Shown piece after piece: positions 24,794-63,574 of a DNA stretch of 64,000 nucleotides (position 1 is the stretch's first letter; every line of letters starts with the position of its first letter). This DNA comes from Batkoa obscura. Lineage: Eukaryota. The notes beneath the pieces are model-generated. The model searched no databases and was not told where the DNA came from. It saw only the letters and a list, made by a program, of their open reading frames with translations. The position numbers were made by a program, and so were the translations under genes. The stretch spans positions 186,001 to 250,000 of the forward strand of contig JASVEC010000002.1 of NCBI GenBank assembly GCA_030770535.1, read 5' to 3'.

Positions 24794-24809
24794 ATATGAT
24801 AGTTTATAT

Positions 24810-38435: not shown

Positions 38436-39306
38436 AACTTGTTAAATATTAAAGTAAAGTTGATTGTATATAAGGATGTTTTCTACTTCCAACTACTCCT
38501 CCACCTTTAAGCGGCTATTGCGTAATTTTTTTTCACTTTTTAACAAAAAGAATTTTTTTTTTCACTTTTTAATTAGTAAAATAAATTTTTAATTAAAAAC
38601 AAGCTCATATAAAATTATTTAATTTATTGTTTTGTTAGCATTTGCATTCAGTTAACAATTGTGTATTTATTAATCTTCAATTAAAAAAACTCTTGTAAAT
38701 GTATTTTTCATATATACACACCTTGTTTAATATTACACAAAACAACAGTTGTACAAAAACTTATCTATTACATTTGAGATCATCTGATGAAACTTATTAA
38801 TTTATTTTCTAAAAATAATTTCTTTTTTCGTCACTTGTTATCTTTATCAAAATTAAATTGTGTATTTTTATACCTATTGTTTTTTAGGATATATTTTATA
38901 ATAAACTATAAAGCTGTAGCTATGGGCTAATGTTTGTAGATAATTAGAGCTATATGTCATACCATATAATATTAAAATGGATTTAACTTTACAGAAAAAA
39001 CAACAAATAGATAAGAATAAAAGTTAAGATGACTAAATTTAATGAAGAATAAATAGCACATTAACAATGCTATAAAAATCAACTTTAATTTTACAACAGC
39101 TCAGTTCTCATGTTTTAGCATATAACTATAAAGTTTACTATTAATTTTTTCATAAAGAAAGGAATAAACTGATCATTACATGTCATTGTATCATGTAAAT
39201 GTTTAGTATTAATGAATAGATTATGAATTAAAATAAATCCAACCCGCTTTACTAAAAAACAAGTATATAAATAATTAAAAACAACTAAAGTCTTTACAAT
39301 TATAAG

Positions 39307-40083
39307 ATGAAATCTATCATATATTTAACCTTGCTTTCTTTAATTAGTGCTCAGTCCACTTCTAATTCAGCTGATTTACCTCCTGGACGCGTTGTTGGTG
39401 GATATGAGGTTAATCCAAAGTTTAAATATCCATGGATGGTCTCGCTTCAAAATAAAGGTGTACACTCTTGTGGAGGCTCCTTACTAAATGGGAATACAGT
39501 CATTTCTGCAGCCCATTGCATTGGAGGAGACGATTCCGATTGGACTGCAGCAGTGCATCGCCATGATTTGAGTAAAGCTGCTAGCGTTGAGAATGGAAAA
39601 GTTTATAAGGTCATTAAACGTATCCCACATCCTCTGTATAACAGTCAAACAGTTTCAAATGACGCTGCTATTTGGAAGCTTGATAACCCTGATCATTCTT
39701 CTACAGGTCTTCTATTAGATGATGGAAAATACTCTAACAAAGATAACACTCTTTTAAAAGTTATTGGATGGGGTACCACTTCATCCGGTGGTACTGTTTC
39801 AAATATTCTATTAGAGGTCAAAGTACCAGTATTTAATGCCAACAATTGTAAAAAAACAGCTTATAATGGAATGAACATTACATCCCAATTTTGTGCTGGG
39901 TACCCAGAAGGCGGTAAAGACTCATGTCAAGATGACTCTGGAGGCCCAATATTTATTGAGGAAAATGGCTCTCCATTATTGGTCGGTATTGTGTCGTGGG
40001 GCGAAGGTTGTGCCCTCAAAGGAAAACCAGGTGTTTACACTCGTACTTCTGTTATTAGAGATTTTATTAAGCAAAATCTATAA
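39307..40083 (+). CDS. Secreted trypsin (S1A) 3, with a Gly193Asp oxyanion-hole substitution
   Basis: R|VVGG, SAAHC, ND; active-site motif reads CQDDSGGP instead of CQGDSGGP. Confidence 0.93.
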   Translation: MKSIIYLTLLSLISAQSTSNSADLPPGRVVGGYEVNPKFKYPWMVSLQNKGVHSCGGSLLNGNTVISAAHCIGGDDSDWTAAVHRHDLSKAASVENGKVYKVIKRIPHPLYNSQTVSNDAAIWKLDNPDHSSTGLLLDDGKYSNKDNTLLKVIGWGTTSSGGTVSNILLEVKVPVFNANNCKKTAYNGMNITSQFCAGYPEGGKDSCQDDSGGPIFIEENGSPLLVGIVSWGEGCALKGKPGVYTRTSVIRDFIKQNL

Positions 40084-41234
40084 TTTTTAATAAATACAGT
40101 TCTTTTAAATTGTTTGTGCTTTTTGTATCATTAGAGAAAGTTAGATATTTAGCAGCATATGACATCATTAAGAAAATTCTTTTGATTTTCTAATATAGCA
40201 TTTTCAGCTGAATAAACCACAAAACCTTCTGGGTTTTATGCTTAGTCTTTTTAAATACTTTATAGTAAGAGTTGATAAATTTATTACATACGATTATTTT
40301 TATGTTAAAATAAATATCAAATGTTTTGAGCTTTAGCTATTATAACAACAAAAGCTTCAATCGAATTTTAAAATATATTTATAAATTATCTATGAAGGAA
40401 TGAGTAAGTATAAATCAATAATTATTACTCTATAAAGTTATAATAAGTGTAGCAGCTATCTTTGAAGGTTACAATTACAAGTTTATACAATGAATATTAT
40501 TCAATTATTCTGGATTCTGTAATGAATGAAAACTAACTCAACCAGTTTGCGGTTTAAATTAATGCAATAATTTAACGGCTGTTGGTGGCTACTTCACCAA
40601 ACCGCTGTTTTAAAATAAAGCTTTAAATAGGATATTTTAGTTTAAAGTCGAGCTTTAGAAATAACACAATTATCATTTGAATAAGCTATAATATCTTTCA
40701 TTCGGTTAAATAGTTACATAATCAAAATTTTAAAGAGATTAAATATAGTTTTATGCTGAGTCGCAGATTTACAATAGCAATGTTCGAGTTTGACCATAAA
40801 TATTTAAAATAATAATCTAGTATCGCTTGTATGAAAACATTAAAAATTTGACTATTTAAATCAAAAATATAAAAAGTTTAGTTTACTGATATATTTTTAA
40901 ATTAAACATAAAACATGACTCAGTAAATCAGGTATGTATCATGAGTGAATTTTTTAGAGAATAAAAATCAAATTAAATAAAATGGATAGATAATTGACTT
41001 TAGTATCACGCATTAAAATTGATCCTTGTGGACTTGCTACATCCCTGATATAATAGATAGTTAGCTAAGTTAAAAAGTATTAAATAATAACTTGTATTAT
41101 ATAAATATAGATACATCACGTCGAGTCACGCTCACGTTCCAATTACAAAAAATTATAAATAAATTGTTGTGTAGCTAAGGATAGAGAAGTATATAAAAAG
41201 AGAGCATCAAACTTTAACTTTAAACAAATTAAAA

Positions 41235-42008
41235 ATGAAGTCTGCTATTTTATTATCTCTTTTATCTCTTGTAGCTGCTCAAACCAAAGAAACTGGTCTT
41301 TTCCCACCTGCTCGTATCGTTGGTGGTTATGAAGTCTCTCCTCAATTTAAATACTCATGGGTAGTTTCTCTTCAGTATAATGGTAGACACTCATGTGGTG
41401 GTACTTTAGTTAATGGAAATACCATTGTATCCGCTGCTCATTGTGTCATTGGTGCCGATTCTGCCTGGAAAGCTTCCGTTCATCGCCATAATTTAACATT
41501 AACTCCTGAAGCCGAGAGTGGTAACACTTATAACGTTATAAAACGTACTTCACATCCTAATTATGTTGCTTCTACTTTCTCTCATGATGTTGCTGTTTGG
41601 AAGATTGATGCCCCAGCTGGTCCATCCACTGGTGTATTATTAGATAGTGGTAAATGGGCTAATGCTGATAACACTCTCTTAAAAGTTATTGGATGGGGTA
41701 CTACTTCATCTGGTGGTGCAGTATCTAAGGTATTACTCGAAGTCAAAGTACCAGTCTTCAATGCTGATCAATGCAAAAAGACTGCTTATGGTACTCTTGA
41801 CACTACCACTCAATTCTGTGCTGGTTACCCAGAAGGTGGTAAAGACTCATGCCAAGGTGATTCTGGAGGTCCATTATTCATTGAAGAAAACAATGCTCCA
41901 GTATTAGTTGGTATTGTTTCATGGGGTAGAGGATGCGCTCTTAAAGGTTATCCAGGTGTATATACTCGTGCTGCCGCTGTTGCTGATTTCATTAACCAAA
42001 ATCTATGA
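41235..42008 (+). CDS. Secreted trypsin (S1A) 4
   Basis: Protein identical to trypsin 2 except for a central patch of about 35 aa. Confidence 0.96.
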   Translation: MKSAILLSLLSLVAAQTKETGLFPPARIVGGYEVSPQFKYSWVVSLQYNGRHSCGGTLVNGNTIVSAAHCVIGADSAWKASVHRHNLTLTPEAESGNTYNVIKRTSHPNYVASTFSHDVAVWKIDAPAGPSTGVLLDSGKWANADNTLLKVIGWGTTSSGGAVSKVLLEVKVPVFNADQCKKTAYGTLDTTTQFCAGYPEGGKDSCQGDSGGPLFIEENNAPVLVGIVSWGRGCALKGYPGVYTRAAAVADFINQNL

Positions 42009-44856: not shown

Positions 44857-45484
44857 AATTAGTAAAAAACATTTCCATTTGTTTAATATTAAAAATTTAT
44901 GCTACATAGAGAAAATGGACAAAAACAAATGAAAAGGAAAACTTTATCTTTAATTTTAACCAAGGTTTTAAACTTGAGGGCTATTCTGGAAAAAGGAACT
45001 TTGCTTCAAAGCTTGGAAATTATGTTGATTTTTATAAAAATATCCGAAATCATTAAAATGTTTTTTTGATAATTAGTTCATTTGTCTATAGGTGGTTAAA
45101 ATGATAAATAAAGTTACTGTCTTCTAATCAAGTCAGATAAAGTTATTACTAAAAGTAAGACGGTTATATAATATATAGCATAAAGCTAATAAAAAAATGG
45201 AATAGCAGTATAAAGTAAATAATACCACTATTTACTAGCAATGAATATCTATATAAGAGTGATTATCTTTGATAGATAAATGAGATCAATTTCATTATAT
45301 TCTATTCAATATTGTTATGTGTAATAAACCATAAACCCTCATTTTGGTTTAGATGATAAAAAATACAACTCTTAATATTTGAGCATCAGGATTATTAATA
45401 AGCTGATTGTATATAAATGTCTTTTACAAATAACAATTCTCAATCCACATTTTTTGTTTAAAAAAGTTTCCGTGAATAATATAT

Positions 45485-45681
45485 GTGTATGTATTTTGTT
45501 CAAGAATTTACTAACAACCTTTCTACTTAAATAGCGGTTAAAAAATAGAAAAGTAATAGAGTCAAAAAAAAAATCACCATATGGGAGTGTTTTTTTTGAC
45601 TCTATTATCTTTTCCATTTTCTAAGCGCTATTTAAGCGGAAAATTTGTTAGTAAAATTCTTAAACACAAAAATACATACAC
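45485..45681. mobile_element. Inverted MITE dimer forming a ~197-bp imperfect palindrome
   Basis: 45485-45578 (+) and 45583-45681 (-) joined at CC-ATAT-GG; ATAT outside both ends. Confidence 0.88.
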
Positions 45682-45786
45682 ATATCCTGTATTCTGTCTT
45701 TTAGCTATTTAGAATACCAAAAAATATTTAATGAACATATAGAAATAAGAACAGAAAAGAAAAGCATCTATCTTTTGAAACTATAT

Positions 45787-45884
45787 GGGGATGTATTTTT
45801 GTATTTAAGAATTTTACCAACAAATTTCCGCTTAAATGGTGCTTAGAAAATGGAAAAAATAATGAAGTCAAAAAAAACACTCTC
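45787..45884 (+). mobile_element. ~98-bp MITE
   Basis: GGGGATGTATTTTTG...CACTCTC; ATAT TSD. Confidence 0.9.
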
Positions 45885-46089
45885 ATATGATTTCTAGATA
45901 ATGATTAATATTCATACTTTTATAGCTTAAAATAATAATACACCAAGTTTTGAATAAGCTAAGATCAAGGAAATAAATACCAATAATAAACTATTGATAA
46001 TAGCGAATTTATAATTATGATATGAAGATCAATTCATGAAATAGTTTTTAAGAATAGATATTAATATTGTAGTAATGTAGATATTCTGA

Positions 46090-46560
46090 TCTTATACCAA
46101 CTAAGGGTATTATTATTACAATCGTATTATGAAATAAAAATTATTGGTCGAAATTGTGTTATTTTTGAAATTCAAAAGTACTGACAGCAATGATAACTTG
46201 TCCATATTAAAAGAATATTACGATAAGTCATGTTATTGTCAAGGATAATTTGTTTATTGTTATTGAATTATGCATGACATATGTATTTTAAAGGTATCAA
46301 GTCATTTTGTTCACAAATATATTTAGCCATCAATACTTGGTATATCTTTTATTAATGGTATAATCGTATTATTTAATAAGGATCATGTTCTAGCCTTTAG
46401 AACAAGAATTTCAATATATTTTTATTCTTGTATTATTAAGATTCATTTATCTACTTTAGGTGTACAGATTAATAAAAATCCTATTATTAAGCTTGAGTAT
46501 TACTCAGCTATAATTTTCAGTCTTATTATAAAGCTTCCTACGAATATCTTTATAAAAACA
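46090..46560. repeat. Diverged non-coding block repeated at about 54150-54560 and 56800-57260 (3' flank of peptide genes A, B and C)
   Basis: Shared run GA(T/C)CTTAT...AGGG.TATT...ATTATGA..TAAAA.T.ATTGGT..AAA.T.T.TT...AGTCAT.TT.TT; boundaries approximate. Confidence 0.7.
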
Positions 46561-46831: not shown

Positions 46832-46955
46832 ATACAGTGTTCAAAAATCAAACGAAAAGTTCTTCATTTATTAATATAAAAATGCTAAAGTAATTGGTTT
46901 TTAAAGAATGGAGTTTGGTTCATTGATGTCATCATTGTTAACCATAGACATTACC

Positions 46956-47219
46956 CTATCCTCTTCTTTGAAGTGGTGCATCAAGTCCTCTTCTGCCATA
47001 TGGTCTATAGGCTCCTCTTCTTTGAAGTGGTGCGTCAAGTCCTCTTCTGCCATATGGTCTATAGGCTCCCCTTCTTTCAAAAGATTGTAGAGATTCGTTT
47101 TCTTTATTTAGTGTTACTGCTCCTTGAATAGAATCGTTAGGAATAGCTGGTGCAGCAATAGCAACAAAGTTATTGATAGTTAAAATAGTAAATAAAGTTC
47201 CAATGAGATGAGTATACAT
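46956..47219 (-). CDS. Secreted dibasic-site repeat-peptide precursor A (KEP-like), 87 aa
   Basis: Hydrophobic signal peptide, pro-region, then RR-[GAYRPYG-RR-GLDAPLQ-RR]x2-G; 54-nt tandem repeat at the DNA level. Confidence 0.85.
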   Translation of the reverse strand: MYTHLIGTLFTILTINNFVAIAAPAIPNDSIQGAVTLNKENESLQSFERRGAYRPYGRRGLDAPLQRRGAYRPYGRRGLDAPLQRRG

Positions 47220-47243
47220 GATTTTTTTTGTGTTTTAACATGT

Positions 47244-49708
47244 GGGGTTGTCTGAATTAGTTTCATTATTTTATCCAATTTTTGAAAAATTTTGTATTTT
47301 AAAAACTTCGCTTAAAATTCTATAAAATCACATCTTTTATTAAAACAAAAGTACCCAAACACAGTTCTAAATCATTCTATTATAGCTCATACTGTAAGTT
47401 AGTTGAATTTCTACTAGATCTTAAATACATGTTCTTATAAAGCTTAATTGAGAAATATTTATTATCAACTGCTTTATAACCAACATCGTAGATTTATTAT
47501 CAAATGAATAAACTACTTTAATGTTATAATTACATTATTAATATATTGCCAAGTTAATAAATAGCTGCATGGGAGGGAATGGTCAGCCCCAAAACTATAA
47601 TTAACCATCCCTATATAGTACAAGTAATAATAGTTTTTACATATTATTACAGTTACTTGTTCTTTGACTATTTATTAACTTAGCTATTAATAACTTAAGT
47701 AATCCTAACATTTAACAATCTATTTCTATCATTCAACAAACTACTTACTTGCTTAGTAAATATCGAAATTTTTAAATTCTCTGTTATCTTCGTAAGGTAA
47801 GCTGGGATCGATCTTTTAATTTTTCTGTTTTCTATAGACTCTATAACTTTAATTGGGACTATATCGCTTTTTTTTGATGTATCAGATACTGGATAACAAT
47901 GTAGTTTATTGTTATGTTTAATAAAGTGTAAATACTTCTTAATGCCCTGCATCTCTATTATTCTTTTTGTATTTTTGTTTCTTTTATACTTTTTAAAAAT
48001 TATATCTGTTTTCCCATTATTAACAGTTGAGTTATTAATTTTATTATGCTCACAAATAAAAGCCTCAAATCTTGAAATTAATTGATCGATATCTTCTATT
48101 TTACCTAACGCTTCAAAACTACTTTTCCATTTTGAAAGGTTTCCAAAATGCCCATCAACTATACTTTTTCCATGATGCTCAGCAAAAAAATTAAGATTAA
48201 CATTCAAACTACTATTTATTTTATGAATTTCTTCAAACATATAGTGTAGAAACTCTTGGGATCTAAAATGATTTCCTGTATCTGCCCATATATTAATTTT
48301 TGTAAACTTTTTAAATAGAAGCTCTGTAGAGATTAAATCGATTAAACAATCTCCTGCATATGCTGAATCATGATTCAATATTTCAGATAAATAATCAAAG
48401 TAAACTTTGCCTATTGTTTTATCATCTTTTAAATATAATACACCAAAGCCTAATACTGATATAGCTTGTTTATTATAATGATCTAGATTTATTGAATCTG
48501 GTCTTGTTCCTATTTCCATATTTTGTTTAAAATCTAAAACTATTATACAACTTTTGTTATTTAATTTTTTGATAGTTTCATTAAATGTGTTTTTTTGAGT
48601 ATCAACACAGAATTTATGTAATTTGTATAATTTTTCTTCTTCGTTGAAAATTTCTTGTATCTCTGCTTTGTTTTTTGCTGTATTTATTTTATTTTCAAAT
48701 AACTTTTTTCTAACTGTATACTGGGTACATATATTACATAGATCCGTTTTTCTTGCTGGATTTTTGAAATTACTTGGTATATATTTAAAGAACGTTGACC
48801 TAGCTACTGCTTTATCTCTTAGATCATTCAAATATTTACTATATATCATTCTTCTACTTTTATTTAATATATATATATTATCTGATGAATATTTACTATC
48901 GTTATTTTTTTTATTAAATCTTGATGAAATAGTTGAATCATTTAGTAAATATTGTATAATAGTTTCAATTTGGTCATCTTTAATTTTTTTTGTATTTTTA
49001 ATAATAGGTTTTAATGTTGATATTTTATTATTATTACTTGTTTTTGAATAATCATATTGATTTCTATTTATATTAAACCTAAAACTCTTACATTCATCAA
49101 AAGAATATACTGAAGCTATAGTTGATAATAACGCTACTTGCTGATTTTTGTTTCCTGTTTCCCTTAAAGCACTAATTTTATACATTACTTGATTAAGTTT
49201 ATTATTATCGATAGTAAACTTTGATAATATATCTTTTCTTTGTTTTGTTTTATTATAAAATTCCATAAACCTTGGGTTGTTATAAGTAGCTCTTAAAATT
49301 GATGTAAATGAATTACAATGTTTATATTGTGTACTCCTCCCTATTGTATTGAAGTTTTCAAAAATTCCATTTCGAAGTTTAGTTATGAAAGTTTGCATTT
49401 TATTTTTATTTCAACAAAAAATAAAGTCAAATAAAGTCAAATAACTGTGTTTATATAATTATGTATTTATATAATTATATAATCATATAGTTATATATTA
49501 TATATCTGTTAAATATCTAATAGAACTAACATAAAATATATAGTTAGGAAAATTAGCTATTTAAGAAAAGGAAACAATTAAAATAAGTTTTAAATAGAGA
49601 CATTTAATTTTAGGCTTTTTAGATTTAACCGTTATATTGGACACAAACTTGAAATTTTAAATTTGGATTAATTTCTAAGTAGATTCTGAAACCAATTAGG
49701 ACAGCCCC
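47244..49708 (-). mobile_element. Intact Sola-like transposon inserted 24 bp upstream of the peptide gene A start codon
   Basis: TIRs at both ends; ATGT TSD; the paralogous empty site at about 55152 has a single ATGT. Confidence 0.97.
47695..49398 (-). CDS. 567-aa DDD transposase (Sola-like)
   Basis: Intact ORF, near-identical to the other copies. Confidence 0.88.
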   Translation of the reverse strand: MQTFITKLRNGIFENFNTIGRSTQYKHCNSFTSILRATYNNPRFMEFYNKTKQRKDILSKFTIDNNKLNQVMYKISALRETGNKNQQVALLSTIASVYSFDECKSFRFNINRNQYDYSKTSNNNKISTLKPIIKNTKKIKDDQIETIIQYLLNDSTISSRFNKKNNDSKYSSDNIYILNKSRRMIYSKYLNDLRDKAVARSTFFKYIPSNFKNPARKTDLCNICTQYTVRKKLFENKINTAKNKAEIQEIFNEEEKLYKLHKFCVDTQKNTFNETIKKLNNKSCIIVLDFKQNMEIGTRPDSINLDHYNKQAISVLGFGVLYLKDDKTIGKVYFDYLSEILNHDSAYAGDCLIDLISTELLFKKFTKINIWADTGNHFRSQEFLHYMFEEIHKINSSLNVNLNFFAEHHGKSIVDGHFGNLSKWKSSFEALGKIEDIDQLISRFEAFICEHNKINNSTVNNGKTDIIFKKYKRNKNTKRIIEMQGIKKYLHFIKHNNKLHCYPVSDTSKKSDIVPIKVIESIENRKIKRSIPAYLTKITENLKISIFTKQVSSLLNDRNRLLNVRIT

Positions 49709-50104
49709 ATGTCTTTATTTACATGTATTTATATACTTTTTTCGATATCTGATGTCTGATGTCTAATGTCTGATAAGGAGTATTTTTTAAAACTATACAT
49801 TAAAAATGTTTGTATTATAATTTTTTATTATCCAATTAATTTTACTTTATAATAGAATACAATGCTATTTATTCTTACTACCACCTTGTATCACATTGGG
49901 TCACACTTTTGATTCTTAACATTCATATGATTTATTAATATTGAATTATTTTATATCATGTACTGTGAAAATCTAAAAATAAGTATTATCTTTTGCTATT
50001 ATCAATATCTATTTTAATTAATCAAACACTTGCCTATTAAATAAAGTTTTGGAATTTATGTTTTATGAAAGATTCTAAACGCAATAATTGAGCATCACGG
50101 TATA

Positions 50105-50202
50105 GGGGGTGTTTTTTTGACTTCATTACTTTTTCTATCTTTTAAGCACTATTTGAGTGGAAAAATTGCTAGTAAAATTGTTAAACATAAAAATGCATCC
50201 CC
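50105..50202 (-). mobile_element. ~98-bp MITE
   Basis: GGGGGTGTTTTTTTGAC...CATCCCC|ATAT. Confidence 0.88.
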
Positions 50203-50474
50203 ATATTATGAATTAGGCTTACCAACTACAAAACATTAATATATTTCTCTCTTTAAACTGATAAATTTGATTTGAATAAAATAGCTGTATACTGACATTC
50301 TAATCTTTATTGGATATATTGATATGGGTCAAAATAACTATAAAGAATCATTGTTATTTTGGCTTGATTTTGAATAGTATTATAGAACGAGATTATATTT
50401 AAGTTTCTGCTGATGCCCTTCTAACCAAAGCTGCTAATAGCCTTCTTATACAACGTTCACGTAAAGATCTATAT

Positions 50475-50558
50475 GGGAAGGTTTTTTATTCAAGCATTTA
50501 GTTAGCAATTTTTTTTAATTTTGTGGCATAGAAGAACATAAAAGTGAAGAACATTCCC
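50475..50558. mobile_element. Possible second MITE type (84 bp)
   Basis: ATAT|GGGAAGGTT...AACATTCCC|ATAT; interior is unlike the main MITE. Confidence 0.45.
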
Positions 50559-50584
50559 ATATTTTAAACAAAAAATAAAAAATA

Positions 50585-50680
50585 AGGTTGTCTTTTTGTG
50601 TTTAACAATTTTAATAACAGTTTTTTCGCTTAAATACTGCTTAAAGATAGAAAAAGTAATGAAGCCAAAAAAATATCCCT
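50585..50680 (+). mobile_element. Degenerate ~98-bp MITE
   Basis: TTTTTGTGTTTAACAATTTT...GCTTAAAGATAGAAAAAGTAATGAAGCCAAAAA core. Confidence 0.75.
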
Positions 50681-51127
50681 AAATGTATTTATTATATTAA
50701 GTAAACCAATCTGAGGATCAAGAAAAGATTATAACTCAAAAGTTGTTATTTGAGGATAAGTTCAAGCGTTTTATTACGGATTTTATATAAGATCGATATA
50801 ATAATCGTCGACTAAAGTTGAATCTTATATAAACAAGCTAATGTTCAAATATAAATGGTACAAATCTACAAGTTGTAGAAAATAATTGAGTACTTAGTCT
50901 AGTTCACTTTAGCTGATGTGTTTTTTAGTAAAAGCTGTAAAAAATATATTGATAAAGTAAATCAGACCAAATACAACATAGCCAAAGTTATACTTTTTTC
51001 ATTAATAACGTTACTATGTATAAGTGTAAATATGCTCGAAAGAATAGCAGGGATTAATTTTGATTATATTGTATTATGAAATAAAACCAGCTGGAAGGAT
51101 ATCAACTATCAATTATATAAACGATAT

Positions 51128-53591
51128 GGGGCTGTCCTAATTGGTTTCAGAATCTACTTAGAAATTAATCCAAATTTAAAATTCCAAGTTTGTGTTCAAT
51201 ATAACGGTTAAATCTAAAAAGCCTAAAATTAAATGTCTCTATTTAAAACTTATTTTAATTGTTTCCTTTTCTTAAATAGCTAATTTTCCTAACTATATAT
51301 TTTATGTTAGTTCTGTTAGATATTTAACAGATATATAATATATAACTATATGATTATATAATTATATAAATACATAATTATATAAACACAGTTATTTGAC
51401 TTTATTTGACTTTATTTTTTGTTGAAATAAAAATAAAATGCAAACTTTCATAACTAAACTTCGAAATGGAATTTTTGAAAACTTCAATACAATAGGGAGG
51501 AGTACACAATATAAACATTGTAATTCATTTACATCAATTTTAAAAGCTACTTATAACAACCCAAGGTTCATGGAATTTTATAATAAAACAAAACAAAGAA
51601 AAGATATATTATCAAAGTTTACTATCGATAATAATAAACTTAATCAAGTAATGTATAAAATTAGTGCTTTAAGGGAAACAGGAAACAAAAGTCAGCAAGT
51701 AGCGTTATTATCAACTATAGCTTCAGTATATTCTTTTGATGAATGTAAGAGTTTTGGGTTTAATATAAATAGAAATCAATATGATTATTCAAAAACAAGT
51801 AATAATAATAAAATATCAACATTAAAACCTATTATTAAAAATACAAAAAAAATTAAAGATGACCAAATTGAAACTATCATACAATATTTACTAAATGATT
51901 CAACTATTTCATCAAGATTTAATAAAAAAAATAACGATAGTAAATATTCATCAGATAATATATATATATTAAATAAAAGTAGAAGAATGATATATAGTAA
52001 ATATTTGAATGATCTAAGAGATAAAGCAGTAGCTAGGTCAACGTTCTTTAAATATATACCAAGTAATTTCAAAAATCCAGCAAGAAAAACGGATCTATGT
52101 AATATATGTACCCAGTATACAGTTAGGAAAAAGTTATTTGAAAATAAAATAAATACAGCAAAAAACAAAACAGAGATAGAAGAAATTTTCAACGAAGAAG
52201 AAAAGTTATACAAATTACATAAATTCTGTGTTGATACTCAAAAAAACACATTTAATGAAACTATCAAAAAATTAAATAACAAAAGTTGTATAATAGTTTT
52301 AGATTTTAAACAAAATATGGAAATAGGGACAAGACCAGATTCAATAAATCTAGATCATTATAATAAACAAGCTATATCAGTATTAGGCTTTGGTGTATTA
52401 TATTTAAAAGATGATAAAACAATAGGCAAAGTTTACTTTGATTATTTATCTGAAATATTGAATCATGATTCAGCATATGCAGGAGATTGTTTAATCGATT
52501 TAATCTCTACAGAGCTTCTATTTAAAAAGTTTACAAAAATTAATATATGGGCAGATACAGGAAATCATTTTAGATCCCAAGAGTTCTTACATTATATGTT
52601 TAAAGAAATTCATAAAATAAATAGTAGTTTGAATGTTAATCTTAATTTTTTTGCTGAGCATCATGGAAAAAGTATAGTTGATGGACATTTTGGAAACCTT
52701 TCAAAATGGAAAAGTAGTTTTGAAGCGTTAGGTAAAATAGAAGATATCGATCAATTAATTTCAAGATTTGAGGCTTTTATTTGTGAGCATAATAAAATTA
52801 ATAACTCGACTGTTAATAATGGGAAAACAGATATAATTTTTAAAAAGTATAAAAGAAACAAAAATACAAAAAGAATAATAGAGATGCAGGGCATTAAGAA
52901 GTATTTACACTTTATTAAACATAACAATAAACTACATTGTTATCCAGTATCTGATACATCAAAAAAAAGCGATATAGTCCCAATTAAAGTTATAGAGTCT
53001 ATAGAAAACAGAAAAATTAAAAGATCGATCCCAGCTTACCTTACGAAGATAACAGAGAATTTAAAAATTTCGATATTTACTAAGCAAGTAAGTAGTTTGT
53101 TGAATGATAGAAATAGATTGTTAAATGTTAGGATTACTTAAGTTATTAATAGCTAAGTTAATAAATAGTCAAAGAACAAGTAACTGTAATAATATGTAAA
53201 AACTATTATTACTTGTACTATATAGGGATGGTCAATTATAGTTTTGGGGCTGACCACTCCCTCCCATGCAGCTATTTATTAACTTGGCAATATATTAATA
53301 ATGTAATTATAACATTAAAGTAGTTTATTTATTTGATAATAAATCTACAATGTTGGTTATAAAGCAGTTGATAATAAATATTTCTCAATTAAGCTTTATA
53401 AGAACATGTATTTAAGATCTAGTAGAAATTCAACTAACTTACAGTATGAGCTATAATATAATGGTTTAGAACTGTGTTTGGGTACTTTTGTTTTAATAAA
53501 AGATGTGATTTTATAGAATTTTAAGCGAAGTTTTTAAAATACAAATTTTTTTAAAATTGGATAAAATAATGAAACTAATTCAGACAACCCC
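51128..53591 (+). mobile_element. Intact 2464-bp Sola-like transposon
   Basis: TIRs; ATAT TSD; almost identical to 22330-24793. Confidence 0.95.
51438..53141 (+). CDS. 567-aa DDD transposase (Sola-like)
   Basis: The only protein difference I see from the 22640 copy is LINL vs LIDL. Confidence 0.88.
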   Translation: MQTFITKLRNGIFENFNTIGRSTQYKHCNSFTSILKATYNNPRFMEFYNKTKQRKDILSKFTIDNNKLNQVMYKISALRETGNKSQQVALLSTIASVYSFDECKSFGFNINRNQYDYSKTSNNNKISTLKPIIKNTKKIKDDQIETIIQYLLNDSTISSRFNKKNNDSKYSSDNIYILNKSRRMIYSKYLNDLRDKAVARSTFFKYIPSNFKNPARKTDLCNICTQYTVRKKLFENKINTAKNKTEIEEIFNEEEKLYKLHKFCVDTQKNTFNETIKKLNNKSCIIVLDFKQNMEIGTRPDSINLDHYNKQAISVLGFGVLYLKDDKTIGKVYFDYLSEILNHDSAYAGDCLIDLISTELLFKKFTKINIWADTGNHFRSQEFLHYMFKEIHKINSSLNVNLNFFAEHHGKSIVDGHFGNLSKWKSSFEALGKIEDIDQLISRFEAFICEHNKINNSTVNNGKTDIIFKKYKRNKNTKRIIEMQGIKKYLHFIKHNNKLHCYPVSDTSKKSDIVPIKVIESIENRKIKRSIPAYLTKITENLKISIFTKQVSSLLNDRNRLLNVRIT

Positions 53592-53861
53592 ATATAATGT
53601 TTCTTAGTTAACTATCCCTAGCTTCAGATGCTTCAAATATTAGAAATGTAAGCCCCCAAAAAGGTAATATTAGAAACCTATTGAAACAAAGATGAAATGT
53701 ATAAATATCATATTAGATATGATTCTATTTTAATTTGTTTTTCCTGAGTTTTCTGTAAACATATTTTTCCGTCTATTGAATATTAAAACAAAATTATTCA
53801 AACTATTCATTAAACAAAAATAAAGATAATAAGAAATGGTTTAAAATATAGAATAGTAAAT

Positions 53862-53956
53862 GGGGATGTATTTTTGTGTTTAAAAATTTTGCTAACGATA
53901 TTCCACTCAAATAGCGCTTAAAAAGTGATAGTGATAAAATCAAAAGAAACATTCCC
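53862..53956 (+). mobile_element. ~98-bp MITE
   Basis: GGGGATGTATTTTTG...CATTCCC; flanks AAAT/AAAC. Confidence 0.82.
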
Positions 53957-54867
53957 AAACTTTAATTATCATAGACAATTATACTTTTTGTATATCAACA
54001 TTGTAGTACTTCTAAGTAAAACAACCCCAAGATAAACAATGGTCAATAGCAAATTACTAATAATGAGGGGTTTATAATTGCTACATAAAATTAACTTGAA
54101 TGCTGTTTTATTGAAGAAATGGCTTTACTTTATAGTGATGTAGGCGATTTGATCTTATAATATTCAGGGATATTGTTTTATAATTGTATTATGAAGTAAA
54201 AATAATTGGTCAAAAATATGTTGATTCCAAAAAATAAACAATTTCTAAAATCAATATCGCCTTTATTCCATCAAAACAAGATAGCTTTGAGTCATGTTAT
54301 TAATAATAATCTTTTAAATTCCTATTAAAATTTTTGTACTATATATTTTTGAAAAATATTGGTGTATCTTTGTTAATTATAGAATCTTGTTCATTAACAA
54401 AACACTATACTTTAAGCTTTATTATAGGAAACTCAATACATTATTAGTTTCGCCTTACTGAAATACTTTTACTTGCGTAAAATGTCTTGATTAATAAAGA
54501 TCTTAGCATTTGCCTTGGCTTCTACTTGGCTATTAACTATATTCTCATAACAAAAAAGTATATGACTTCCCCATTAAAGAAACAGTGATTTTAAACAATT
54601 TTAAATCAGCCAGTTTATAAAGAGTGTAATAATAAAGTGTTTATGCAATATTTATACAATCACAATAAACATATTTGTAATATAATATTGACTATAAAAA
54701 AAAGGTAAGTATAATCGACTTTAATGTATACTTTGAAAAAATTAAATAAATCACTAATAAAATAAAATAAGACTCGTATTTATTAGTATAAAAGTATTAG
54801 AATAACCAGTTTTCCAATAAGAGAGTTTGATAAATTCATATCATCATTGTTAACCATAGACATTACC

Positions 54868-55131
54868 CTATCCTCTTCTTTGAAGTGGTGCATCAAGTCC
54901 TCTTCTGCCATATGGTCTATAGGCTCCTCTTCTTTGAAGTGGTGCGTCAAGTCCTCTTCTGCCATATGGTCTATAGGCTCCCCTTCTTTCAAAAGATTGT
55001 AGAGATTCGTTTTCTTTATTTAGTGTTACTGCTCCTTGAATAGAATCGTTAGGAATAGCTGGTGCAGCAATAGCAACAAAGTTATTGATAGTTAAAATAG
55101 TAAATAAAGTTCCAATGAGATGAGTATACAT
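54868..55131 (-). CDS. Secreted repeat-peptide precursor B (identical to A)
   Basis: Same 87-aa sequence; upstream region uninterrupted, with a TATA-like TATATAAATA about 40 nt upstream. Confidence 0.88.
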   Translation of the reverse strand: MYTHLIGTLFTILTINNFVAIAAPAIPNDSIQGAVTLNKENESLQSFERRGAYRPYGRRGLDAPLQRRGAYRPYGRRGLDAPLQRRG

Positions 55132-55159
55132 GATTTTTTTTGTGTTTTAACATGTCTTT

Positions 55160-55345
55160 ATTTACATGTATTTATATACTTTTTTCGATATCTGATGTCT
55201 GATGTCTAATGTCTGATAAGGAGTATTTTTTAAAACTATACATTAAAAATGTTTGTATTATAATTTTTTATTATCCAATTAATTTTACTTTATAATAGAA
55301 TACAATGCTATTTATTCTTACTACCACCTTGTATCACATTGGGTC
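55160..55345 (-). promoter_or_regulatory. Conserved upstream module of the peptide-precursor family
   Basis: On the + strand, ATCCAAT(T/C)A followed 61-63 nt later by TCACATT recurs at 55273, 49830, 59075 and 63230, i.e. about 130-150 nt upstream of the B, C and E starts and of the A start once the transposon is removed. Confidence 0.6.
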
Positions 55346-58300
55346 ACACTTTTGATTCTTAACATTCATATGATTTATTAATATTGAATTATTTTGTATC
55401 ATTTACTATGAAATTATTAACAATATCTGCTTTTATTATTATTAATATCAATCATTTATTTTGTTTAAGTAGACAATCACCTATTGAATATTATTTTGGA
55501 TTTCATTCTTTAGTTTTAAATTCTAAATCTAGATTTAGATGACAACACATTTACTGCGAGATTAAAATTATCAATCTTATAGTATTATAGTACTGCTCTT
55601 TTTAGTAAAAAAATAAGCATTTATTAAGATAGCTATACTATATTTTTTGATCTATATAAATTATATGATGTGTATTTTAGTATGATGGGAGCATTTCATG
55701 TTGTTTTAACTAATGATTGATTAACGATATAGAATAGGTCAAAATTTATCTTTACTTCTCTAAACAAAATTATTTTAGAAGTTCTTTTGTAAAGTTTATA
55801 AATACAATGTGGTGTTTTTGCATCAATGAAAAGTTTTGGTATCAAATCCTACAAAACATTAAACTCTGCCAAGTATTTCGGGATAAAGCATGCTAGTTAT
55901 GAAAATTAGCATGAATATTAAGGTGTATAAGACATCATATCTAAAACGGGTATCTTTTTAATGAGTGAACTAAGATTTTCAAAAACACATTGGGTTTTAG
56001 AAGAAAACACTCAATGGTAGTAGCAACCATTTCAATAGGAGTTTAATAACAAATGTATACTTTAATCATTAGAGAAATTTTCAATAGTTTCAAAGCTATA
56101 TATTAGCCATAAAAGGTATAACTCATGGCATTTTATTTAGAAGAACAGTAAAAAATAAGGCTGAAATGATATCAAAAGATATAGCGGAAGTTTTATAAAG
56201 ATGAAGGTATTTAGGGATAATTTGGGTTGGTTTTCAATTGTACTTTTTTATGAAGTCAAACTGATTGGACTATAATTTTTAATAAAAAAGAGAATCTAGC
56301 AGCAATAGCTTATTTAGTACTGCTAATATACTATTATATTAGCTGTTATAGTTATATGGGTTTCATTTATTAAAAGGGCATGGGTTTAAAAAAATACTCT
56401 TAGAGTCATCACTAAGCTTGAAAATCACAAATATTGTTTTGCAAAAGAGTCATTCTTTTGATCCATGTCTTTTACATCAATAAACTTTCTATCAACAGAC
56501 TGTTCCGTCTGCTGATATACAAAATAAATAAAATATCATTTTATAGAGCTATGTATTAAATGATGATAGTAAGAGATTTTTTATTTTAAGGTACAGTTCT
56601 TCTAGTGAACTTTAAGCGTATATTTTTGGATATTAAAATAGTAATGTGTTATCAATTTTATATAACTTGAGCTCAAGGAAAATAGCCATCAACGTTAAAT
56701 TGTTAAATATACTAATTTATAATTGCTTGTAGCCAATTTGGTTCATATAGTAGTTTTTTAAGGGTACATATTGACATTAAAATAACGTAAATGGTCCGAC
56801 CTTATGAAATTCAGGGATATTACTTTCATAATAACATTATGAGATAAAAGTAATTGGTTAGAAATTGTATTGTTTTTGAAATACAAAAGCAGTTGCCAAC
56901 AGTAGTGGCACCTTTATCCATATTAAAAAACTGTTGCTTTAAGTCATCTTGTTATTAAAATTTTTTTATCTTTAGCTATCAAATTGTACACAGTATATAT
57001 ATTCAAAAAGCACTAGATCATTGGTTTCTAAATAACTTTAACTTTCACAACTTGGTGTGCTTTTTATTGATTGTAGAATCATGTTATCTAATGGAAATTA
57101 TGCTTCAGTCTTTAATATAAGTTCGATCCCTCATTGTTTGTGGTCTATTGAAATTAGTTTATTTGGTTAATATATTTGATCAACGAATATTCTACTAATT
57201 AAACTATTGTTTGATTATAAACTGTAGTCTCATTATAAAGCATTCTACAACTACTATCATAAAACAAATACATATTACAGCACCTTCAGACATAAATAGT
57301 TTATTAAAATTTAACAACAAAGGGGTTGTAAAATTTTATTATAGTTAGAAAAATTTGATTTATAATAGCATTGTTTATAAAAATTTCAAATTAAATTTTA
57401 ATGCATGCTTAGAGCATTCACAACAGTAAGTCCAAAAAATTGAGCAAATTAATTTTATTTGCTCAATCAATTTAGACAATTTTCAAAGTTCCTTGATTGT
57501 CACTAATAGCAAATATACTTAAGATTAAGAAGCTATTTGTTGCGGATTTTTTTATGTAAATTTAATAATGTTCCTAGATCAAGAGGTCCTTAAATTTTTA
57601 TACAAAAATAATAAATCAAAAACTAATAAATCTGAATTATAACATTCTATCAAAACTATGAAAGTGAAATGAGATACTATTTCTCTATTCGAAAAGAACG
57701 ATTGGCTCATTATTAAACCAATTTAGTTGAATTCCATTTAAAAACTATTTTAAAGATTATATACGATATAGCTATATAAAAGCTTAATAGTATATAAATA
57801 GCTATTCTTGCAAATAGGCGAAATAAGCCGTTGATTTTTTACGTAACAGCCAATATTCATAAAGTAGAACTTTTGCTATACATAATATCTAACTTGAATT
57901 TATTATACTATATTGGGATGTTATTTTGATTTCATTTTTTGTCAACTTTTATCAAATAAAAGCACTCGATAGTTTATTTGCAAAACTAGTAAAAAACATG
58001 TCAAAATAATCAAGTTTAAAAGATCCGAATTTAGATATTAGCTATTTTTGAATGCCCTCTTTCTTTTTTTGGGCAAATCTTAACTATGAAGACTGCGGAA
58101 TTGTAGTAAAAATCATTGATTTAAATTTCGATATTTGTATAGAAAAATTCCAAAAAAATAGAACCTATCAAAAAACTACTATTTTTCTATTTAATAAATA
58201 GTTTTAGCTGATACTAGAACATTTTATTCAACTAGTAAAAAATAAATTTAAGTTCATTGTTTTTTAAAAGGAGGAGGGGACTTAAAAAATTAAGAGAAAG

Positions 58301-58687
58301 TTATTTAAAACTAAGTGCTTATAAAATATTTTTATAAAATATAATTATTTTAGTTAATGATATGGGGACATATTTTTAGATGAAAAAAATATATCCCTGT
58401 GATTTAGCACCTTTCTGCTCAAAAAAGAAAGAAGCATTCAGAAATATAATACATTCCAATTATGTTTGCCAAAAAAATAATTTAGTTCAAATTTAAGCTA
58501 ATGGATTAGAGGTAAAATAATTGTAAAATGTTTCAAACTTTACCTGCTTGAATATTTTATTACTGGGAATGGGAGAAATCAAACATTTTTTCAAAATGAA
58601 ATTAAACAAAAAAATCCCTCTCATTTATTAAAATTAAAATAATAAGCTAATTCACTTTACTATAGGAAGCTTAATACATTTAACCTA

Positions 58688-58945
58688 TCAACGGAATCTA
58701 TAAGCTTCATCAATGCTTCTTCTACTATATGTTCTACTACTTCCTCTTCTCTTAAGTAATGCCTCAAAATCTCTTTCACCATATGGTCTCCAATTTCTTT
58801 TTTCAAAAGATTTATAAGGTCCGCCTTCTTTATTTAATATTATTGTTTCTTGGATAGAATCACTGGAAAGTATTGGAGCAGCAGTAATGACAAAAGTACT
58901 AATAGTTAGGATAGTGAATAAAGTTCTAGTGAAATGAGTATACAT
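58688..58945 (-). CDS. Secreted peptide precursor C, 85 aa
   Basis: Signal/pro-region homologous to A/B (MYTHFTRTLFTILTI...DSIQ...LNKE); KR-NWRPYGER-DFEALL-KRR-GSSRTYS-RR-SIDEAYRFR. Confidence 0.85.
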   Translation of the reverse strand: MYTHFTRTLFTILTISTFVITAAPILSSDSIQETIILNKEGGPYKSFEKRNWRPYGERDFEALLKRRGSSRTYSRRSIDEAYRFR

Positions 58946-60332
58946 GACTTGATTTTTTTTATAATTTATTTTAGCTACATTATTAAGTATTTATATATTT
59001 TTAATACCTTGTATTTATTAGAGAACACGTTTTTGTAATTATACACTGCATATGTTTGTATCATATATATTAATATCCAATCATATTTACTTCATAATAT
59101 AACATAATAGTGTTTACTCATAATACTATTTTATGTCACATTCAATTGCACTTTCGATCCTTGAAATCTATAAAATTTGTCAATATTTGGTTATATTATA
59201 TCATTTACTGTGAGGTTATTTGAATATTTATTCTTATAATTATAATTATCATCAACTATACATGTAATTTGATCACACAGCTGCTATTAAGGGATTTTTT
59301 TGGGATTCTTATAAATATGATTTATTAATTCTAAATAGGGATGGTGGTTAAACACCGCACTTATTAGAAATTTAAAACTATAAACTACTCAATAACAATT
59401 TTCATGTATCAATAATAAGGCTTATTTGTTAATTTCCTATTTTTTAAGTGTTGTTGCTAACAAATAATAGAGAAAAAAAAAGGTATGTAAAACAAATAAA
59501 GGGCCTTTATATATGCTTCTTAAACACTCTTGCGCACAATATCTATAACCCAAAATTATCTTCATCATAACTAACTATAAAACCGATACCTCCATTCATA
59601 CCACTCATTCACACTAAACCTTTTCTTTTGATCTTTGTTATTACTTTATCTACTTGCTTTGTTGGATCTTTCCCTTGAATATATACCATTCTCACTGTGA
59701 ATCTTCAACAAATGATTCAGGGCTTGATTTCTTGACCTTTAATCTTCACTTTGAATGGCACATTTTATGGGTTATTATCTCCTACTTTATTGTCAAACAT
59801 CCAAGCAGGGATGCTTACACCATTGGAAATATCTTAAAATGGTCTCCTAATCTTTTTTATAAACTAATCCAAATTTAATAAAATATTTTACTTTCTGAGT
59901 TCAAATTTTAAAAAATTATAAGAGCACATTTTGTAAATGATTTTATATTTTAGTCTTCAAGATGAACAGTTTGTTTATTAAACGTATCTAGTCAAATTAT
60001 GTCTATTTATTTAAAGCTCCTTGGTTAAATAATAATACATGTTTGATATGCCAATTGTCATTATAAATCCTAACTTTATTATAAAAATTAATTTTTGTTG
60101 CAATAGTTATTAAAGAAATAAAAGCAGGGTGCTTATATAATATTTGTCTAACAAGGAGCGTCCAAATTAAAGGAATAATATTAATTGTATTAACCATAAA
60201 TATTGTAAGAATTATGCTATTTAATATATAATCAAAATAGTTAATAAATATTATGTATCAAATAAAATAAATAAGTGATAAAATATTAAAGTAATAGATT
60301 CACGAATAAAATGGTTTGATGGATTCCCATTA

Positions 60333-60539
60333 TCATCGCCATCCATAGGCTCTATCAACGTCTCTTATATTATATATTCTCCCGCTTCCTCTTCTTCCAA
60401 CAAATTGATGATTTCCACTTTGTTTGTTTGATATTGCTACTTTTTGAATAGAATCACCGGAAAGTACAGGAGTAGCAAGCGCAATAAAGCTATTGATACC
60501 TAAGACGGTAAATAGAGTTCTAGTAAATTGAGCTTCTAT
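60333..60539 (-). pseudogene. Peptide precursor D: open frame but start codon ATG>ATA (not in the ORF track)
   Basis: Manual translation: (I)EAQFTRTLFTVLGINSFIALATPVLSGDSIQKVAISNKQSGNHQFVG-RR-GSGRIYNIR-DVDRAYGWR*. In-frame TAG upstream and no in-frame ATG. Confidence 0.82.
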
Positions 60540-60639
60540 AATTTGATTTTTTATAATTTGTTTCGGCTACATTGGTAGATGTTTGTATACTTTTTTTGAT
60601 AGTTGATATCTAATAAGCTTGATTTTTTTATAAGTATAT

Positions 60640-60737
60640 GGGGATGTATTTTTTTGTTTAAGAATTTTACCAACAATTTTTCCATTCAAATAGCGCTTAA
60701 AAAATGGAAAAAGTGATCAAGTCAAAAAAACACCCCC
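60640..60737 (+). mobile_element. ~98-bp MITE upstream of precursor D
   Basis: GGGGATG...CACCCCC; ATAT TSD. Confidence 0.9.
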
Positions 60738-61077
60738 ATATATTAAATATATTCATACTATATTTAATACCTTTTAATTATTTTTTCTTATTTTTATAAA
60801 CCCAGCCATTTCATTTATTTAATCAAACACTTACTTTTTATATAAGCTCTTATATCTATACTCTATAGAAAAAAACCATGAATGCAGATATTAATTAGAT
60901 ACTATAGTATTATAAGTAAGTTTACCACTTGTTTAATGTCAATAGTGTAACTCTTTTGAGTTAACAAAAGGATCTTAAACAATAAAAACTTGTATTTTTT
61001 GAATCCCATTGATGATATAGTGTACCAACCAACATATAAAATGATTTTTGTTGCTTTAATTAAGTTTGAAAAGTATA

Positions 61078-61175
61078 GGGGAGTGTTTTTTTATTTCATT
61101 ATTTTTTCCATTTTTTAAGCGCTATTTAAGCGGAAAATTTGTTAGTAAAATTCTTAAACATAAAAATACATCCCC
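61078..61175 (-). mobile_element. ~98-bp MITE
   Basis: GGGGAGTG...CATCCCC|ATAT. Confidence 0.88.
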
Positions 61176-61249
61176 ATATATTGATCAGTTCTCATCAAAT
61201 TTTTCTATTTACAAAGTCAATGTTTGAATATGAAAAGTACAAAACATGT

Positions 61250-61347
61250 GGGGATGTTTTTTTCAATTTCATTATTTTTCCATTTTTTAAGTGCTATTCG
61301 AGTGGAAAGATTGTTAGTAAAATTCTTAAACACAAAAAAACACCCCC
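61250..61347 (-). mobile_element. ~98-bp MITE
   Basis: GGGGATG...CACCCCC; flanks ATGT/ATAT. Confidence 0.88.
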
Positions 61348-61941
61348 ATATATTAAATTAAGCAAAGTGATTCGATATAACATGTTTAAGTAATTTCATC
61401 TTTAGTAATAGCATATATCTTTACAATGATCAATGTTTTTGAGAACAATAATAGTTGTTTTTCAATTGTGTTCGATTATATTCAATTGTATTTAATTATA
61501 TTCAATTGTATTTAATTATGAAGTTAAAGTAGTTGGATAACAAATCTTAATGATAATAAAAATTAATAACTATCAATTGATAGATTCATTATATGCTATC
61601 AAAAATATTAGTTCTAACTTTATTAATTAAGTATCAGAAAGCCATGCCATGAGCTTCAAAGGTATACTATTAGGATCATTATCGGGTTTGATTATAAACA
61701 TTAATTTATTAATAGTTGCTCTTTAATTTATATCTCAATAACAATTTTCGATTAAAAAGGTATATTCCGTCTGTTGTAAATTTATGCTAATAAAAGATGG
61801 TTTATAAACCACAAATAAAATACTCATAAAAACATAATAGTGTTCTTAATAAGCATCATACTTTGAATTAGAATTAGAATTTAGTATTTTAGTATATAAA
61901 TATCAGTATAAGCAACCAGACAATTTAACTTTTATAGATAT

Positions 61942-62038
61942 GGGGATGTATTTTTGTATTTAAGAATTTTGCTAACAAATGTTCCACTCAAATAGTGCTT
62001 AAAAAATGGAAAAAATAATGAAGCCAAAAAACATCCCC
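61942..62038 (+). mobile_element. 97-bp MITE with perfect 8-bp termini
   Basis: ATAT|GGGGATGT...ACATCCCC|ATAT. Confidence 0.93.
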
Positions 62039-62695
62039 ATATTTTGTCTTTTCTAATTCTATTATGAGCTCAAATTAATTGGCTGGAATTACTGATTGTG
62101 AAAATATAAAAGTAAATAGTGATGAATTTTTCTATTGTCAATAACACATGGCTATAAGTCGTTTTAAATAAATGGTTATATCAATAGCATTTTAAGAATA
62201 AGCATTGTTTGAATTTATAAATTATATAGTATTTTGGCTATATAAGCCCACCCTATCTTTTATTTATTATAAAATCATGTCACACTTTTTACGTTAAAAT
62301 AAGATGGAAAAGGGAGTTAGCTAGGCCATATCTCCTATTTAACAAAATAAAATTGTAGTTTCTGATCATTCCAAATATTTTTTAAAAGTTAGTATTTTGA
62401 AAGTAAGTAAATTTGATATTTCTATTGAAAGCAAGCATCATTTAATTAATATTATTGTTAGGCTTTACTATCATTTTAAGATAAAGGGATTTGCCCACAG
62501 AGTTAACTATGGTCAAGCATACTTGATTCATTGTTTGAGTTTAATAAGCTATGATAAGTAAAATTATACTGAAAATAAATGAGTATTAATTAAATTCTTT
62601 TTGTGACTTACAGCAAAAAAGGCAACTTGCTTCTTAAAAGATTAGTTTATATAAAAAAACAACAACTTTAAACTTTTCTTAAAAATTAACTATAT

Positions 62696-62791
62696 GAGTG
62701 TTTTTTTAGTTTAATCACTTTTTCTATCTTTTGAGAATTGTTTAAGTGAAAAGATTGTTAGTAAAGTTCTTAAACAATAAAATACATCCCC
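62696..62791 (-). mobile_element. ~98-bp MITE just 3' of precursor E
   Basis: Core match ending AATACATCCCC|ATAT. Confidence 0.8.
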
Positions 62792-62845
62792 ATATGTAAA
62801 TAAAAATTAAATATCAATAATGTTTTATTTAATGTATTGATATTG

Positions 62846-63082
62846 TTAACGCCATCCATAGGCTTTACCGATTCCTCTTTTTGAAAGTGAAGGATTATGT
62901 GTTTCTTTATTAAATGTAGAAATAGAAGCTCCATGATATTCATCCGATAATTTGACTAATTTATCAACATTTGATATTAATGTTTCTTGATTTGAATGAT
63001 TAATAGCTACCGGGGTGCTAATAACAACAAAAATATTGATGCCCAAGATAGTAAACAAAGATTTGAGAAAATGAAAGTACAT
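62846..63082 (-). CDS. Secreted peptide precursor E, 78 aa
   Basis: MYFHFLKSLFTILGINIFVVISTP signal homologous to A-D; ends KR-GIGKAYGWR*, sharing AYGWR* with D. Confidence 0.83.
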   Translation of the reverse strand: MYFHFLKSLFTILGINIFVVISTPVAINHSNQETLISNVDKLVKLSDEYHGASISTFNKETHNPSLSKRGIGKAYGWR

Positions 63083-63574
63083 GATTTAGTTATTTAATTC
63101 TTATGTTTGTTTATATTGTTAGGTATTTATACCCTTTTTTCATACCTTTCAAATTATTAAGGGCATTTTATAGTGTAGAGTAACTATAGTTTTATCTTTG
63201 GTACTAAGCTCTTAATAAAGTATACTTTTATCCAATTAGTTTTGCTTCAAAATAGAATTTAACAATATGGAATTCTTACTATCATTTCAAAATCACATTA
63301 TATTATGTTCTTAATTTAAAACGTTTTTTTTATTAATGATATAATTTTATAGGAAAGGTGAATTTAATTAGAAAAGAATGAGAATTAGTTCTCAACTGTA
63401 TTCTATTATAAAGTAAAATCAATTGGGTAATTGTTTTTATTAAAAAAATTAAATAGTTGTTGATCAATATAAACAATGTATGCTACTGAAACAGCTATCC
63501 TCAATTTTATTAATCAAATATTAATCAGACATAACCCTTAATACAATACTAAAATCATCATTAAGATAAAAAAT

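Follow-up and report, generated by a model that had tools for sequence, protein, structure and literature searches.

A tandem family of small, probably transcribed peptide precursor genes of the Kex2 type with recurrent tyrosine cores in the fungus Batkoa obscura

A stretch of 64,000 nucleotides from Batkoa obscura (assembly GCA_030770535.1, contig JASVEC010000002.1, positions 186,001 to 250,000 of the forward strand), here called the window, was analysed; its G+C content is 26%. It harbors five homologous reading frames, A to E, all on the minus strand and arranged in tandem (mutual tblastn E-values 2e-08 to 1e-25). This confirmed the proposal of an earlier note on the same DNA that five co-oriented paralogs of 68 to 87 amino acids (aa) are encoded in this region. 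A DNA profile of the family detected exactly five copies in the window, the next match having an E-value of 1.5. The family comprises undescribed, probably transcribed small precursors of the Kex2 type. The window ends about 900 bases beyond E. The cluster and the features discussed with it are listed below by their positions in the window.

46956-47219, minus strand: precursor gene A, 87 aa; (GAYRPYG-RR-GLDAPLQ-RR) twice after leader and pro-region
54868-55131, minus strand: precursor gene B, 87 aa; same coding DNA as A; TATA-like box at -47
58688-58945, minus strand: precursor gene C, 85 aa; NWRPYG-ER-DFEALL-KRR-GSSRTYS-RR-SIDEAYRFR; TATA-like box at -52
60333-60539, minus strand: precursor gene D, 68 codons; GSGRIYN-IR-DVDRAYGWR; without a start codon in the window
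62846-63082, minus strand: precursor gene E, 78 aa; one core only, KR-GIGKAYGWR, after a longer pro-region; TATA-like box at -49
46938-46961, minus strand: terminal core in degenerate form, at the stop of A and beyond it, GXGNVYG (X, stop), tyrosine register intact
54850-54873, minus strand: corresponding terminal core of B, degenerate as in A, at its stop and beyond
47244-49708, minus strand: transposon copy T1, with a 567-aa open reading frame (ORF; 47695-49398), short terminal inverted repeats and a 4-base target duplication
51128-53591, plus strand: transposon copy T2, same element as T1 and inverted relative to it, between A and B
16798-17781, minus strand: gene for a rhodopsin-family (7tm_1) G-protein-coupled receptor (GPCR; PF00001, E=1.8e-11), 29 kb from the cluster

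The five frames are not equivalent. A and B, which had been counted as separate paralogs, are present as two frames but do not differ at any of their 264 coding positions. Position D had been taken for a gene like the others. It lacks an ATG, however, as the codon at the start position specifies Ile where the database homologs P0122 and P0125 have Met. The five-member family comprises four distinct proteins and, in the window, three intact genes.

In each precursor, a hydrophobic leader is followed by a pro-region and then by short segments, one to four in number, that come after basic sites. The motif LFT[IV]L[TG]I was found in the leaders, and all peptides listed in the earlier note are present in the sequences. 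A single hydrophobic stretch lies within the first 25 residues (hydropathy over 11 residues of 2.05 to 2.84, and at most 0.79 past residue 28), and none of the precursors A to E contains cysteine; this hydropathy would fit an ER signal peptide with no other membrane segment. The core pattern common to most of them is G-x-x-[RK]-x-Y-G. The tyrosine occupies the sixth place after the basic site in 9 of 15 segments of at least six residues, or in seven of 12 distinct segments; the count took in A, C, D, E and the database paralog P0123, with B omitted because of its identity to A. The tyrosine register described previously stands for these seven segments. That description had passed over the segments that have no tyrosine, namely DFEALL in C and GLDAPLQ, which A/B encode twice. 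When hydrophobic leader, KR or RR sites and tyrosine in sixth place were combined in a screen, which is partly circular as it was built from the finding itself, four ORFs were retrieved from the real region (A, B, C and E) and none from any of 200 shuffled versions. The DNA past the stop of A and B keeps the same register (GXGNVYG), which makes it likely that internal and terminal cores go back to one ancestor. At least four fragments are delimited by KR, RR or KK sites in A/B, C and P0123 but not in D and E, which have one dibasic site each.

It had also been stated that the leaders are conserved while the cores diversify. This was not borne out, as mean identity over ten pairs was 50% in the first 40 residues and 45% in the tyrosine cores (53% for best-matching cores). 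The variable part is the number and order of the cores. The ratio of nonsynonymous to synonymous differences per site (pN/pS) in the leaders was below 1 in six of six pairs, with uncorrected values of 0.46 to 0.76 based on about 29 synonymous sites each.

Expression was assessed with contigs of three runs, guessed to be RNA, which were compared with positions 54700-63300 (B to E, with A outside); the best-supported pieces are reported. Contig depth was found on B and C in all three runs, although depth cannot rank the genes, and neither strand nor conditions can be read from these runs. Gene C was matched by unspliced contigs with 0, 1 and 4 differences, and the reading frame of E by contigs with 0 differences in two of the three runs. 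On D, cover came from one run, at low depth and with 8 differences. Four intervals (55274-56421, 57570-57856, 58144-58430 and 59292-59865) had no cover in any of the three runs, as expected if the runs are RNA. Short dispersed repeats likewise attracted contig cover. Beside the exact contigs, diverged ones were present that resembled C (48 differences) or E (13 to 17) in two runs and D (22) in one, which indicates that more paralogs or alleles exist. Genes B, C and E are probably transcribed; a lack of their transcription had been named beforehand as an outcome that would refute the proposal, and probable RNA contigs cover all three.

Relatives of the family were found in one species. Among 70 candidates four family matches were identified, all of them Neoconidiobolus thromboides proteins, and a profile search of 1.84 billion representatives yielded seven matches, namely the four N. 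thromboides proteins and P0127 to P0129. The latter three were dropped, being long tandem-repeat proteins without leader or cores whose score was summed over 5 to 12 weak stretches. C is 98% identical to the N. thromboides protein P0121. Compared with N. thromboides strain FSU 785, two residues differ in C, two in D and one in the first 34 residues of A; D is intact in that strain (P0125). Differences as few as these make it likely that the window comes from another strain of that species, or at any rate from an entomophthoralean fungus very near to it. A sixth paralog, P0123, is located on another contig of FSU 785 and reads GSGRPYG-RR-GFYEPLL-RR-GSGRPYG-RR-YSLLKLS. The mitochondrial L16 gene, A, C and D share one contig of 12,383 bases in FSU 785, as against 17.1 kb in the window, and the two transposon copies T1 and T2 are therefore probably absent or collapsed there. 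The nearest named match of the window's L16 gene is from Entomophthora muscae (67%). The public FSU 785 model of A (P0124) was not adopted, because the 49-base intron that it implies would close with GG here and its frame is not common to the paralogs. The model shifts the frame, so that the GAYRPYG repeats are hidden, and P0124 appears to be mis-spliced into another frame.

A match to a characterised family, another of the checks named beforehand, was not obtained from Pfam, solved structures or literature motif searches: with A, C, D and E as queries, Pfam returned no family at E<=1, and solved structures gave a single chance match (E=1.6). Longer multi-repeat relatives were absent from 7991 candidates, which is weak evidence, and none of 174 pattern matches in metagenome contigs was confirmed. 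No description of these genes or peptides was found in the full-text literature, in which few subscription journals are covered.

The history of the cluster can be read in part from its flanks. The identity of A and B extends over 315 bases (24 upstream, 264 coding and 27 downstream), whereas the upstream flank of B is 89% identical to the DNA beyond T1. This contrast speaks for an early duplication whose copies gene conversion later made alike, although an assembly effect might also explain it. A is set apart from its TATA-like box by the 2.46-kb element T1, which is inserted about 20 bases upstream of the ATG. Downstream of A, B and C lie old duplications of non-coding DNA that are 66-67% identical (45914-46377 versus 56620-57092, and 45782-46160 versus 53857-54222); they point to growth of the cluster in tandem blocks of at least 2 kb. 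The family evolves by tandem duplication, by acquiring or losing an internal unit of 18 residues, and by gene death, putative cases of the latter being D with its lost start, A cut off from its promoter, and the dead terminal core of A/B.

The transposon occurs in five copies within 64 kb (3910-6374, 22325-24795, 35490-37955, 47244-49708 and 51128-53591). The 567-aa ORF is intact in four copies, which share 98.6-99.8% identity. A frameshift and an extra inverted end of 770 bases mark the first copy (3910-6374). The termini are GGGG...CCCC, and 4-base AT-rich target duplications flank four of the five copies. The ORF has no Pfam match (best E=0.18). By its features the element may be Sola-like, and it seems to have been active recently. 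In addition, a dispersed repeat of about 110-130 bases is present in more than 20 copies in the window (e.g. 60621-60750, 61074-61180, 61930-62045 and 24805-24918). Some copies form inverted pairs (45481-45889), and the ends resemble the transposon termini; this is likely a family of miniature inverted-repeat transposable elements. The repeat is thickly covered by probable RNA contigs.

Other genes in the window include a tandem stretch of secreted-type proteases (25363-42008), made up of two M14 zinc carboxypeptidases (25363-26718 and 27989-29230) and four trypsins at 31626, 34066, 39307 and 41235, two of which are 94% identical, as well as a 593-aa metallopeptidase of family M64 (IgA peptidase family; 13477-15258, E=1.9e-27), here in a fungus. 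Near the left end lies an apparently intron-split multi-membrane gene without a Pfam match (368-1340). A small homeodomain protein (8232-8765) and a polysaccharide deacetylase with a tail rich in Ser, Thr and Glu (19601-20632) are also encoded.

The anatomy, the probable transcription and the absence of a characterised match all fit the reading as Kex2-type precursors put forward in the earlier note. In fungi, the alpha-factor path comprises secretion, cutting by Kex2 after KR or RR, and trimming by Kex1 (PMC6339444). The precursors described here would be secreted, with signal-peptide cleavage before AP or TP near residue 22-23. Kex2 would then cut after KR or RR, and Kex1 would remove the C-terminal basic residues. 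Expected products are GAYRPYG, GLDAPLQ, GSSRTYS, SIDEAYRF and GIGKAYGW, with longer pieces at decayed ER and IR sites. The peptides would stay linear, with neither amidation nor cyclisation. That the precursors are processed to linear peptides is a likely prediction. Table S1b of PMC6339444, which names 15 species without KEX1, KEX2 or STE13, does not include the relative Conidiobolus coronatus.

The released peptides may serve as extracellular signals that are read by the fungus's own rhodopsin-family GPCRs. Our preferred, though tentative, interpretation is that the five genes encode secreted precursors which are cut to linear signals of the G-x-x-[RK]-x-Y-G type for these receptors. Short hydrophilic peptides with a fixed register would fit receptor ligands. 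According to Table S3 of PMC12842992, 26 of 33 GPCRs of N. thromboides FSU 785 are of the rhodopsin class, with no Ste2 and no Ste3 among them, and the same source describes rhodopsin-class GPCRs as concentrated in Entomophthoromycotina. In PMC6339444 (section 18), the pheromones of such fungi are called mostly unknown. The GPCR encoded in the window is an example of this candidate receptor class; its location 29 kb away is no link to the peptides. A wider idea, that these fungi run an animal-style peptidergic system of their own in which multi-peptide prohormones act on the expanded set of orphan rhodopsin-class GPCRs in place of the missing Ste2 and Ste3, is speculative and rather doubtful.

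Several observations weigh against peptides that signal to the fungus itself, and the receiver is the least supported step of that interpretation. The earlier note had described all peptides as flanked by basic sites. KR or RR indeed occurs at most of them, but NWRPYG ends at ER and GSGRIYN at IR, which are single basic residues and thus two decayed sites; strict cutting at KR/RR would give pieces of 14 and 18 residues there, so that beside the ER site of C the candidate products are NWRPYG and NWRPYGERDFEALL. In a survey of S8 proteases (PMC6169396), none of 18 from C. thromboides was classed as kexin, and the only two kexins were from C. incongruus; for this species the Kex2 step is therefore only inferred. 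The window's GPCR gene is intronless, and its best solved relatives are opsins, with weak E-values, quite apart from its distance. In Coprinopsis, knockouts of six genes for Kex2-processed repeat proteins (KEPs) had no phenotype in pure culture, and outward-facing roles were favoured (PMC9769878). No homologs beyond N. thromboides were found; as small genes are often unannotated, the restriction to one species holds for protein databases only. Such a restriction would fit a species-specific signal no better than a family that is dispensable or directed at the host. A further weakness is that the runs are guessed to be RNA.

The same linear peptides might instead be small effectors aimed at immune, gut or neuroendocrine receptors of an insect host. 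The fungus is a member of a group that infects insects, secreted-type proteases abound in the window (four trypsins, two M14 carboxypeptidases and the M64 peptidase), the family is confined to one species and shows both birth and death of genes, and characterised KEP peptides serve mostly in biotic interactions (PMC9769878). Since full-text motif searches gave no match to an animal neuropeptide and the tyrosine cores are not more diverged than the leaders, we regard host-directed effectors as unlikely, if well worth considering. A decaying and largely dispensable relic, transcribed with little function, would account for the impaired look of two of the five copies, the decayed cleavage sites and pN/pS values only moderately below 1. 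On the other hand, the reading frames remain uninterrupted with leaders 42-62% identical, very little separates C and D from their counterparts in N. thromboides FSU 785, and the coding DNA of A/B is homogenised against 89% identical flanks, which leaves decay a quite unlikely explanation. A structural, surface or antimicrobial role of the peptides or of the uncut precursor (in the wall, in conidial mucilage or in competition on cadavers) is improbable: peptides released by Kex2 can alter hyphal walls, as for Rep1 (PMC6339444), and the precursors are Arg-rich, yet the pieces are hydrophilic and have 6 to 9 residues compared with 37 in the Rep1 peptides, and the fixed register of a residue is in keeping with a binding site.

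Two further alternatives involve modified peptides. The conserved tyrosine is the residue used for cyclisation in ustiloxins, asperipin-2a and phomopsins (PMC7329392), and the cores might accordingly be dikaritin-like ribosomally synthesised and post-translationally modified peptides. Neither DUF3328/UstYa nor tyrosinase was detected, however, in the 61 open frames of at least 65 codons outside the transposons, a search which short exons would escape and which does not extend to the side beyond E, and according to PMC7329392 a DUF3328 neighbour is recorded for none of 185 Zoopagomycota KEPs. On these grounds cyclisation is unlikely, and dikaritin-like products are very unlikely. The earlier note had also raised amidation and mimicry of a host neuropeptide. 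A Gly-Arg-Arg follows the core in A/B and P0123 and might direct formation of C-terminally amidated mimics of insect neuropeptides such as GAYRPY-amide. This part of the proposal was not upheld. Gly directly precedes RR in just two of the seven distinct tyrosine cores and is internal in AYGWR of two others, and the amidating enzyme PAM is reported missing throughout fungi (PMC6529398); amidation is hence unlikely. As no RPYamide family was found in print either, amidated mimics are very improbable indeed.

The proposed signals of the fungus itself would be of interest for several reasons. Little is known about pheromones and peptide signals in Zoopagomycota, and our searches found no ligand for their many rhodopsin-class GPCRs; the family supplies exact candidates of 7 to 9 residues and a finite set of 26 receptors. 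Precursors that carry fewer than three repeats are overlooked by KEP screens, and one gene (A) is mis-modelled in public annotation. Should the wider idea of an animal-style peptidergic system hold, precursors with one or two cores escape the existing KEP catalogues, and the true size of the class could be far greater. The family would be just one more among thousands if its peptides were common or dispensable products of the KEP kind.

In common with KEPs, the family has tandem paralogs, a leader and a pro-region, short cores set off by KR/RR sites, and abundance in Zoopagomycota. Unlike typical members of that class, A/B and P0123 have two copies per 7-residue motif, C and D have unlike cores, and E has one core. 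The catalogues require at least three repeats (PMC6339444, section 24; PMC7329392, section 13, there of 8 or more residues), a number reached by none of A/B, C, D, E and P0123. The family is undescribed, but its kind of precursor is not: KEPs are densest in Zoopagomycota (11.56 per strain; PMC7329392), and 11 or 19 are catalogued for C. coronatus, several with neighbouring accession numbers among 15 of the 19 rows. The terms 'thromboides', RPYG and AYGW are absent from the text-form supplements of both papers, whose picture tables may bear on the point, and no literature was found that joins 'Kex2-processed repeat' with Conidiobolus.

The alpha-factor precursors MF-alpha1/2 are similar in their prepro layout, in dibasic sites and in one to four copies of a short peptide; they differ in peptide length (9 to 24 residues, compared with 6 to 9 here). 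A, C, D and E have no Pfam match to MF_alpha_N or MF_alpha (PF05436, PF04648), and the alpha-factor precursor cluster ranked second in an atlas listing with a score of 0.79, which serves as a lead only. Of the XA/XP dipeptides trimmed by STE13 no run was found; one GA occurs in the A/B core and none in C, D, E or P0123. Dikaritin precursors (ustiloxin, phomopsin, asperipin-2a) likewise have tyrosine-bearing cores between Kex2 sites. The present family, from outside Dikarya, differs from them in its few and unlike repeats and in that no DUF3328 or tyrosinase gene was found in the window. Animal neuropeptide prohormones (such as those of RYamide and NPF) resemble the family in that several related peptides are encoded per small precursor, in G-RR at some sites and in candidate receptors of the rhodopsin class. 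Unlike them, the family shows no sequence homology and no conserved G-RR, and PAM is reported absent in fungi; the likeness is convergent. By its anatomy the family would be placed with precursors of the KEP/alpha-factor type, being itself new but of a type already recognised as frequent in this group of fungi.

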